A DNA stretch of 10,108 bases from a virus, in UHGV virus genome UHGV-0351028; one strand, given 5' to 3'. Under the pieces are notes generated by a model. The model had not been told where the DNA came from and did no database searches. It was given only the letters and a program-made list of their open reading frames with translations. Shown here piece after piece: positions 4,114-4,593 of this stretch. Positions within the stretch are counted from its first letter, which is position 1. The number at the start of each line of letters is the position of its first letter. Made by a program: the position numbers and the translations under genes.

Positions 4114-4593
4114 ATGGATAAAATTAATTACCCACCCCTGTTTGAGCCAGGGTTCCATGACATGGATGAAGCTGGATTAAAATCGTATTGTGTCGATTGC
4201 TTTCCTTCATCATCCAGGCGAGGCATGCTATACTGTAATTTTATACAGCTACTCGAATCTATTCGAGAATTATCTGCTCAATATGGCTGTTTTACAGAAA
4301 TATGGGTTGATGGTTCATACACCACGTCTAAACCAGAGCCTGATGATATTGATATTTTGTTGGTATGTGACTATAGCAATATAAACTCAATACCTGTCAT
4401 GCTTCGGGGCCGCGTCGATAATTTGCTTGACCGAAACTACATCAAACAAAACTACAAAATTGATGTCCTACTACTCATGAAGAATTTAGATGACCCTAAC
4501 TATGATTATGAGTACTGGCGTAGCTACTGGCGCGGTTGGTTTGGTTTTGATCGCAGTGAAAACCCGAAAGGGTTAGTGAGGATTTTTTTATGA
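4114..4593 (+). CDS. Hypothetical protein with a minimal nucleotidyltransferase (Pol-beta-like) signature; first gene of a cassette in the rexAB position
   Basis: 159-aa ORF. Motif G-S-x9-D-I-D (EIWVDGSYTTSKPEPDDIDILLV) fits the GS...DxD nucleotidyltransferase signature. Trp/Tyr-rich C-terminus. Visibly AT-richer than the flanking immunity genes. Not RexA or RexB. Confidence 0.8.
   Translation: MDKINYPPLFEPGFHDMDEAGLKSYCVDCFPSSSRRGMLYCNFIQLLESIRELSAQYGCFTEIWVDGSYTTSKPEPDDIDILLVCDYSNINSIPVMLRGRVDNLLDRNYIKQNYKIDVLLLMKNLDDPNYDYEYWRSYWRGWFGFDRSENPKGLVRIFL

Follow-up and report, generated by a model that had tools for sequence, protein, structure and literature searches.

Lambda-type immunity region in which rexA and rexB are replaced

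In the virus genome UHGV-0351028, a two-gene cassette occupies exactly the place that rexA and rexB hold in phage lambda, between cI and tImm/pL. The first gene, ORF159 (4114 to 4593, plus strand; 159 aa plus stop), encodes a predicted minimal Pol-beta-type nucleotidyltransferase (NTase) of the family DUF6932/PDC-M63A, and the second, ORF310 (4590 to 5522, plus strand; 310 aa), encodes its PDC-M63B partner. Coordinates refer to the window, the whole stretch of 10,108 nucleotides that was analyzed. An earlier sequence-only reading of this DNA had proposed the nucleotidyltransferase and missed both the replacement and the coupling of the two genes.

Window positions 2936 to 3995 were 96.9% identical to lambda cro-oR-cI, with the match ending 31 bases past cI. 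Homology resumed at 5529, the counterpart of the final rexB base in lambda, and ran through tImm and oL/pL (5529 to 5804; 90.4% identity). The intervening 1,533 bases (3996 to 5528, plus strand) had no lambda match (blastn against lambda and mEpX1) and hold only ORF159 and ORF310. Since lambda identity breaks after cI and resumes at the last base of rexB, with the pair alone in between, the pair is an exact substitute for rexA-rexB. The G+C content of the cassette is low (0.37 to 0.38 at 4001 to 4750, versus 0.39 to 0.52 in the rest of the window).

The upstream gene, cI (3251 to 3964, plus strand; 237 aa), encodes HTH_3 (PF01381) and Peptidase_S24 (PF00717) domains and has 97% DNA identity to lambda cI. 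An intrinsic terminator (5529 to 5548, plus strand) with a 7-pair stem (six G-C) and a T run immediately follows ORF310, where lambda has tImm. The promoter scan placed a pL-type promoter of the N operon, TTGACA-17-GATACT (10 of 12 matches), at 5737 to 5765 on the plus strand, within the oL/pL-homologous stretch, and this promoter is the downstream boundary of the immunity slot. Beyond it lies N (6014 to 6397; PF25694), which shares the plus strand with cI, ral, kil, an AAA_24 ATPase gene, abc2, and ead, while cro (2950 to 3150), cII (2516 to 2812), and replication gene O (1484 to 2344) are on the minus strand. Overall, the window spans a lambdoid immunity and early region of mosaic makeup.

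In a lysogen, the pair is most likely driven by the cI promoter. Promoter-like sites inside the cassette (4394 to 4422 on the plus strand and 4371 to 4343 on the minus strand) were set aside, their frequency being no higher than in shuffled sequence. The 149-base spacer between cI and ORF159 contains a weak hairpin with a T-rich tail (4052 to 4071, plus strand; six pairs, three of them G-C). It is possible, with some uncertainty, that this hairpin is an attenuator; such sites in the region do not exceed the shuffled expectation.

ORF159, a predicted minimal nucleotidyltransferase

Translation of 4114 to 4593 gave exactly the 159-aa protein quoted in the sequence-only reading, and the GS-x9-DID signature noticed there is present as G67-S68-x9-D78-I-D80. 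That signature had also been fitted to the hG[GS] motif of nucleotidyltransferases. The G[GS]-x9-[DE]h[DE]h part of the fit stands (G67-S68-x9-D78-I-D80-I), but Asp66 rather than a hydrophobic residue precedes G67, and a strict hG[GS] match fails. By itself the motif is weak evidence, since a loose G[GS]-x9-13-D-x-[DE] pattern occurred in 6.7% of composition-matched shuffles of ORF159 (1,347 of 20,000). Among the 21 long open frames in the window, only ORF159 carried it.

It is conservation, rather than the motif alone, that argues for ORF159 being a real nucleotidyltransferase. The residues G67, S68, D78, and D80 did not vary among 39 homologues with identities as low as 34%, with D117 present in at least 90% of them. 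They were 99 to 100% conserved in an alignment of 141 sequences (ORF159 and 140 representatives of 50%-identity clusters) and 100% conserved in 79 aligned sequences (ORF159 and relatives from genome loci in many phyla), where D117 reached 96%. Accordingly named as putative catalytic residues are G67-S68, D78, D80, and D117; the last is 86 to 96% conserved across alignments and starts strand 116-123, the next beta strand, where it would supply the third catalytic carboxylate.

An AlphaFold2 model of ORF159, built from the 39-sequence alignment, had a mean pLDDT of 96.2. It runs from a long helix through a strand ending at G67-S68, a strand with D78 and D80, and helices to the strand from D117, and the predicted core is alpha-beta-alpha-beta-alpha-beta, as in solved NTases. 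Fold comparison gave figures of 5.6 for ANT(3'')(9), 5.4 for AAD(9), and 5.2 each for the MNT of a HEPN-MNT complex, HI0073, and CdnB. The sequence-only reading had staked its interpretation on a nucleotidyltransferase fold and on conservation of the motif residues; both were checked, and both were found. Sequence searches against PDB chains were unusable (flavodoxin noise with the single sequence; with the profile, a Pol-beta palm at an E value of ~0.25 and a de novo design at 0.01).

The protein had been described as not obviously fitting the MNT-HEPN, AbiEii, or CBASS classes, and its catalogued family had been overlooked. ORF159 matches Pfam DUF6932 (PF22014) at 87.3 bits (cutoff 27; model positions 7 to 141 of 142), PADLOC PDC-M63A at 1.8e-41, and phrog_9194, and it is 100% identical to a protein of phage mEpX1. 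NCBIfam has a model for neither ORF159 nor ORF310. In a profile search, DUF6932 comprised 3,725 clusters at 50% identity with E values of ≤1e-3, 1,417 of them at ≤1e-10. Nearly all of the best 150 clusters were stand-alone proteins of about 110 to 210 aa. Fusions were rare; two of the listed proteins (P0304 and P0322) had an N-terminal Peptidase_M78 (ImmA/IrrE) domain joined to DUF6932.

The Trp/Tyr-rich C-terminal segment (residues 134 to 145, YWRSYWRGWFGF), previously called unusual, is instead a signature of the family. Its close-clade form is R136-SYWRGWFGF, followed by P151-K-G, and the core of the segment (Y138, W139, F143, and G144, with P-K-G at 151 to 153) is kept in distant members and is not peculiar to ORF159. 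Two hydroxyl residues of the enzyme are also conserved, Y138 (89%) and T71 (100%).

ORF310, the partner protein

The stop codon of ORF159 and the start codon of ORF310 share 4 bp (ATGA), and a GAGGA lies 9 nt upstream of the ORF310 start; the two genes are translationally coupled. The ribosome-binding site is poor for ORF159 (AAGG) and good for ORF310 (GAGGA). ORF310 matched PADLOC PDC-M63B at 7.5e-45 and also phrog_6603, and neither Pfam nor NCBIfam gave a match to it.

The model of ORF310 (pLDDT 82.9) comprises a helical hairpin at about residues 10 to 57, a mixed alpha/beta region at about 62 to 230, and a C-terminal beta barrel at about 235 to 309, which as modelled is an OB fold of the single-stranded-DNA-binding protein (SSB) type. 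A Foldseek search of the model against the PDB returned nothing at an E value of ≤1e-3, and an identity as class III cyclase or Cas10 palm was rejected, the matches being weak (probability ≤0.69; TM ≤0.28). In an alignment of 60 family members, S130 and W201 were 100% and G129 and G176 98% conserved, and only these four positions reached at least 98%. ORF310 does not look like an enzyme, since a conserved acidic or histidine catalytic set was absent from this alignment. The G129-S130 pair sits in a stretch with pLDDT values of 61 to 74, a flexible G-S loop. The protein is hydrophilic and was modelled as soluble.

Residues 62 to 146 contain conserved ELRLKG...G-x-IP and RLA-x-L-x-PGS motifs and weakly match the N terminus of the PADLOC candidate PDC-M32A (E value, 3.4e-5). 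This similarity suggests a module common to the candidate systems PDC-M63 and PDC-M32.

Pairing and partner modularity across genomes

In a scan of GTDB (one genome per species), 76 of 80 loci had an ORF310-family match immediately 3' on the same strand, usually at a spacing of -19 to +36 bases; two of the four misses were contig ends. The paired loci came from Enterobacteriaceae, Bacteroidota, Vibrio, Desulfobacterota, Nitrospirota, Acidobacteriota, Verrucomicrobiota, Clostridia, Parcubacteria, and Alphaproteobacteria. The partner was adjacent in all 80 IMG/VR loci. Four metagenomic contexts that were looked up each had a gene for a 309- to 325-aa protein directly 3' of the DUF6932 gene, and in the three that were tested by hhalign the downstream gene was an ORF310 homologue (E values of 1e-42 to 1e-51). 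Since the GTDB and IMG/VR scans were both seeded with motifs of the query's own clade (RSYWRGWF), and since a true, if distant, family member in Streptococcus phage MissE1 has an unrelated 55-aa ORF behind it, the pairing holds for the sampled clade and is not universal in DUF6932. The 55-aa ORF was considered as a stand-alone copy of the partner hairpin and rejected, similarity being absent.

The partner varies in its composition. In Chitinispirillia loci it is 133 to 135 aa long and consists of hairpin and OB fold only, with the hairpin matching clearly (E value, 8e-13). A Blastocatellia MAG and a Clostridia MAG (L065 and L079) have a weakly matching hairpin (hmmsearch E values of 3e-4 to 6e-4; hhalign probability, 41%) followed by TPR-like repeats that score under the Pfam cutoff, and at one locus the hairpin is joined to a C-terminal part of another kind. 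Profile matches therefore depict the ORF310-type partner as modular, with only the hairpin region still matching in some lineages. The YW...FG...PKG signature is kept in the enzyme regardless of partner type and, being so retained, belongs to the enzyme's own function. In two Chitinispirillia MAGs with the reduced partner (L062 and L068, about 7000 to 7850), the enzyme has His in place of D117 and the signature reads YW-x-N-x-FG.

Distribution and neighborhood

The same cassette, 99.6% identical, is found in phage mEpX1 behind a different cI, and diverged versions lie 3' of cI in PhiR30_1 and Erwinia phage vB_EhrS_59, again with differing cI genes. Among 61 distinct upstream neighbors in viral contigs, 36 carried HTH_3 and 32 carried Peptidase_S24, so that the upstream neighbor of the pair in viral contigs is usually a CI-type repressor. 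These repressors are only 7 to 47% identical to the first of them. At a coverage of at least 80%, the cassette was present in 18 of 5,426 complete E. coli genomes, and homologues were found in eight phage records and six plasmid records. In E. coli KL53 (NZ_CP030919.1, 1787093 to 1790055), the cassette match is in two pieces with an IS4-like ISVsa5 transposase annotated beneath, and this copy is probably disrupted by the insertion sequence.

In non-viral genomes, the neighbors were heterogeneous mobile-element genes, with restriction, BREX, or HEC-01 genes only scattered among them (148 neighbors of 54 loci). A conserved third gene was sought among the same 148 neighbors with Pfam and PADLOC, and the only recurrent family was HTH_3 (8 of 148). 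One Desulfuromusa locus adjoins SIR2_2 and HsdR genes. In Streptococcus phage MissE1 (L093, 2929 to 3960), the DUF6932 gene is part of the lysogeny module, next to a gene for a RelE toxin and two genes from an ImmA/IrrE gene. This setting and the Peptidase_M78 fusions link DUF6932 to repressor-protease circuits.

Relation to known systems

The pair belongs to Pfam DUF6932 and PADLOC PDC-M63 by the criteria of those catalogues. With both models strongly matched by adjacent genes on one strand, PDC-M63 (A and B), DUF6932, and PHROGs 9194 and 6603 are the same entity as the pair and do not differ from it in sequence; the entries carry no function. Searches of the literature on DUF6932, mEpX1, and defense systems combining an NTase with an OB fold did not find a functional study. 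The pair as an entity is already catalogued, and ORF159 is identical to the mEpX1 protein; what is new here is the OB fold and modularity of the partner, the pairing within the clade, the exact replacement of rexAB, the recurrence after CI, and the link to ImmA/IrrE.

The pair is not MNT-HEPN, AbiE/MenT, CBASS, RexAB, or Hailong, since the defining feature fails in each. AbiEii/MenT (DUF1814) systems resemble it in that the active member of the toxin-antitoxin or abortive-infection pair is an NTase. The 3' ends of tRNAs, to which MenT-type enzymes add nucleotides, are the kind of target that we propose for ORF159. However, ORF159 is about half the size (159 aa versus about 250 to 300 aa) and has no AbiEii match in Pfam or PADLOC. 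An AbiEi/MenA-type partner is also absent, with cI upstream of ORF159 and the partner downstream, an order reversed relative to abiEi-abiEii. CBASS CD-NTases have a full cGAS/DncV-like fold (about 300 aa or more) and an adjacent Cap effector, which the pair lacks. RexA-RexB shares the identical slot and likewise consists of two genes in one operon, for which the repressor promoter presumably provides transcription in lysogens, but the pair has neither a DNA match to rexAB nor a Pfam match to RexA or RexB and is unrelated in sequence and fold. RexB is a polytopic membrane protein, whereas ORF310 is predicted to be soluble and not a RexB-like membrane channel. BstA likewise occupies the conserved place behind the prophage repressor, in a mosaic hotspot (PMC8585504), but is a single unrelated protein. 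By analogy, its nearest counterparts in mode of action would be the small toxin-antitoxin and abortive-infection pairs that are based on an NTase.

Proposed function and alternatives

We consider there to be about an even chance that the pair is a lysogen-expressed two-gene superinfection-exclusion or abortive-infection module, in which ORF159 is the sole enzyme and ORF310 a nucleic-acid-binding sensor or regulator. In favor of this reading are the conserved active site, the pairing, the make-up of the partner, the slot shared with the RexAB/BstA hotspot, the listing of the family as a PADLOC candidate, the position after the repressor, and the Desulfuromusa locus. Mosaicism is known to be concentrated between cI and N, where two abortive-infection systems, RexAB and BstA, are housed, and in lysogens cI ranks with the most strongly transcribed prophage genes (PMC8585504). 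PADLOC PDC-M63 is a candidate class predicted from the occurrence of genes within BREX, DISARM, or type I RM loci. Counting against a role in defense, known defense genes are only sporadic near the pair in non-viral genomes, and in the one published test, removal of PDC-M63AB from the native prophage of E. coli NILS69 caused no change for 10 virulent dsDNA phages (PMC12409345).

Under the proposed exclusion module, a lambda-immunity prophage would carry the pair instead of rexA-rexB and most likely cotranscribe it with cI in the lysogen. ORF159 would be an active minimal Pol-beta-type nucleotidyltransferase, the constant catalytic component and only enzyme of the pair. ORF310 may dock to it by the conserved N-terminal helical hairpin, as the conservation pattern suggests, and its OB fold might bind single-stranded nucleic acid that is made by the invading phage or that serves as the substrate. 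That the OB segment is not basic (pI 6.9) and that OB folds bind proteins and sugars too count against nucleic acid binding. Sensing would prompt the enzyme to nucleotidylylate its target, which is most plausibly a nucleic acid 3' end such as that of tRNA or phage ssDNA, and phage growth would be blocked. More tentatively, and on the less probable side, the pair might represent a new mechanistic class, in which an SSB-like OB-fold sensor captures phage-made single-stranded nucleic acid or host tRNA and presents it to a minimal NTase, so that a 3' end is tagged or a nucleotide signal built, as a functional replacement of RexAB widespread across bacterial phyla.

A different division of labor, with the NTase as antidote, has its precedent in MntA-HepT (PMC13000451). 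ORF159 would nucleotidylylate ORF310, for example at the invariant Ser130, and keep it inactive as an effector until infection stops or reverses the modification; ORF310 would then act by coating ssDNA or RNA. Like ORF159, the NTase of MntA-HepT (MNT-HEPN, a type VII toxin-antitoxin system) is a small stand-alone Pol-beta-type protein with GS...DxD, its gene comes first of two in a tightly coupled operon carried by mobile elements, and MNT proteins were among the closest solved folds. We nevertheless find this scheme unlikely. ORF310 is not a HEPN protein: it has no Pfam match, combines a mixed alpha/beta region with an OB fold, and does not conserve R-x4-6-H, the only invariant Arg residues being R68 and R122 and no His being invariant. 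A recognizable toxic domain is also absent from it, and the exchange of its C-terminal part in some lineages, with the enzyme constant, suits a sensor better than an effector.

The pair might also have no part in defense and serve as a toxin-antitoxin-like addiction module stabilizing the prophage or mobile element, or as a lysogeny-control accessory tied to repressor/ImmA circuits. The negative NILS69 deletion (PMC12409345), the predominance of mobile-element genes among the neighbors (HTH_3, recombinases, YdaT, and terminase), the rare Peptidase_M78-DUF6932 fusions, and the MissE1 family member beside RelE and ImmA/IrrE genes speak for such a role. We regard it as rather unlikely all the same, given that the slot after cI is the home of the exclusion systems RexAB and BstA and that the PADLOC family was found embedded in restriction or BREX-type loci; moreover, addiction and defense can coexist.

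In Hailong, also a two-gene system, the NTase HalB makes an oligo-dA that keeps the partner inactive (PMC13434031). A guard of this kind, in which ORF159 constitutively makes a short oligonucleotide (free or protein-primed) that is held by the ORF310 OB fold until a phage nuclease or competition frees the active state, would be in keeping with the HalB precedent, with the ssDNA-binding type of the predicted OB fold, and with the conserved hydroxyl residues Y138 and T71. HalB-HalA resembles the pair as a two-gene operon of an NTase and a partner binding single-stranded DNA (a predicted property of ORF310), but Hailong is defined by a HalB NTase with a transmembrane HalA channel, which the pair does not have. 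We judge this explanation improbable. A small-molecule (antibiotic) nucleotidyltransferase of the ANT/Lnu type is highly improbable, as only the shared core aligns (83 to 102 residues of 250- to 265-aa proteins), ORF159 lacks the drug-binding C-terminal helical domain, and neither a conserved OB-fold partner nor a position after cI is expected of a resistance gene.

The classic position (lambda cI-rexAB-pL), together with a phage that grows on E. coli K-12 (mEpX1), makes the pair unusually easy to test. If it defends, its enzyme-plus-OB-sensor design would join a small set of nucleotidyltransferase-based immunity mechanisms and show what can replace RexAB. If it does not, it would mark a limit of guilt-by-embedding predictions.

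Other features of the window

The window (1 to 10108) is mosaic in its parts, with cro-oR-cI and ral 97% lambda, a non-lambda type of N, a P22-type abc2, and O and a toprim protein for replication. Among complete E. coli genomes, none had at least 80% of the window in one place, and the best covered 65%. Two ORFs, at 70 to 897 (minus strand) and 8067 to 8654 (plus strand), had no Pfam match at an E value of ≤1e-3; they may correspond to the features annotated as "toprim domain-containing protein" and "DUF669 domain-containing protein" in matching E. coli prophages. Between O and the toprim-type gene at 70 to 897, which it overlaps by 16 bases, lies a NUMOD4 plus HNH_3 gene (882 to 1376, minus strand), which resembles a free-standing homing endonuclease gene that has entered the replication module.
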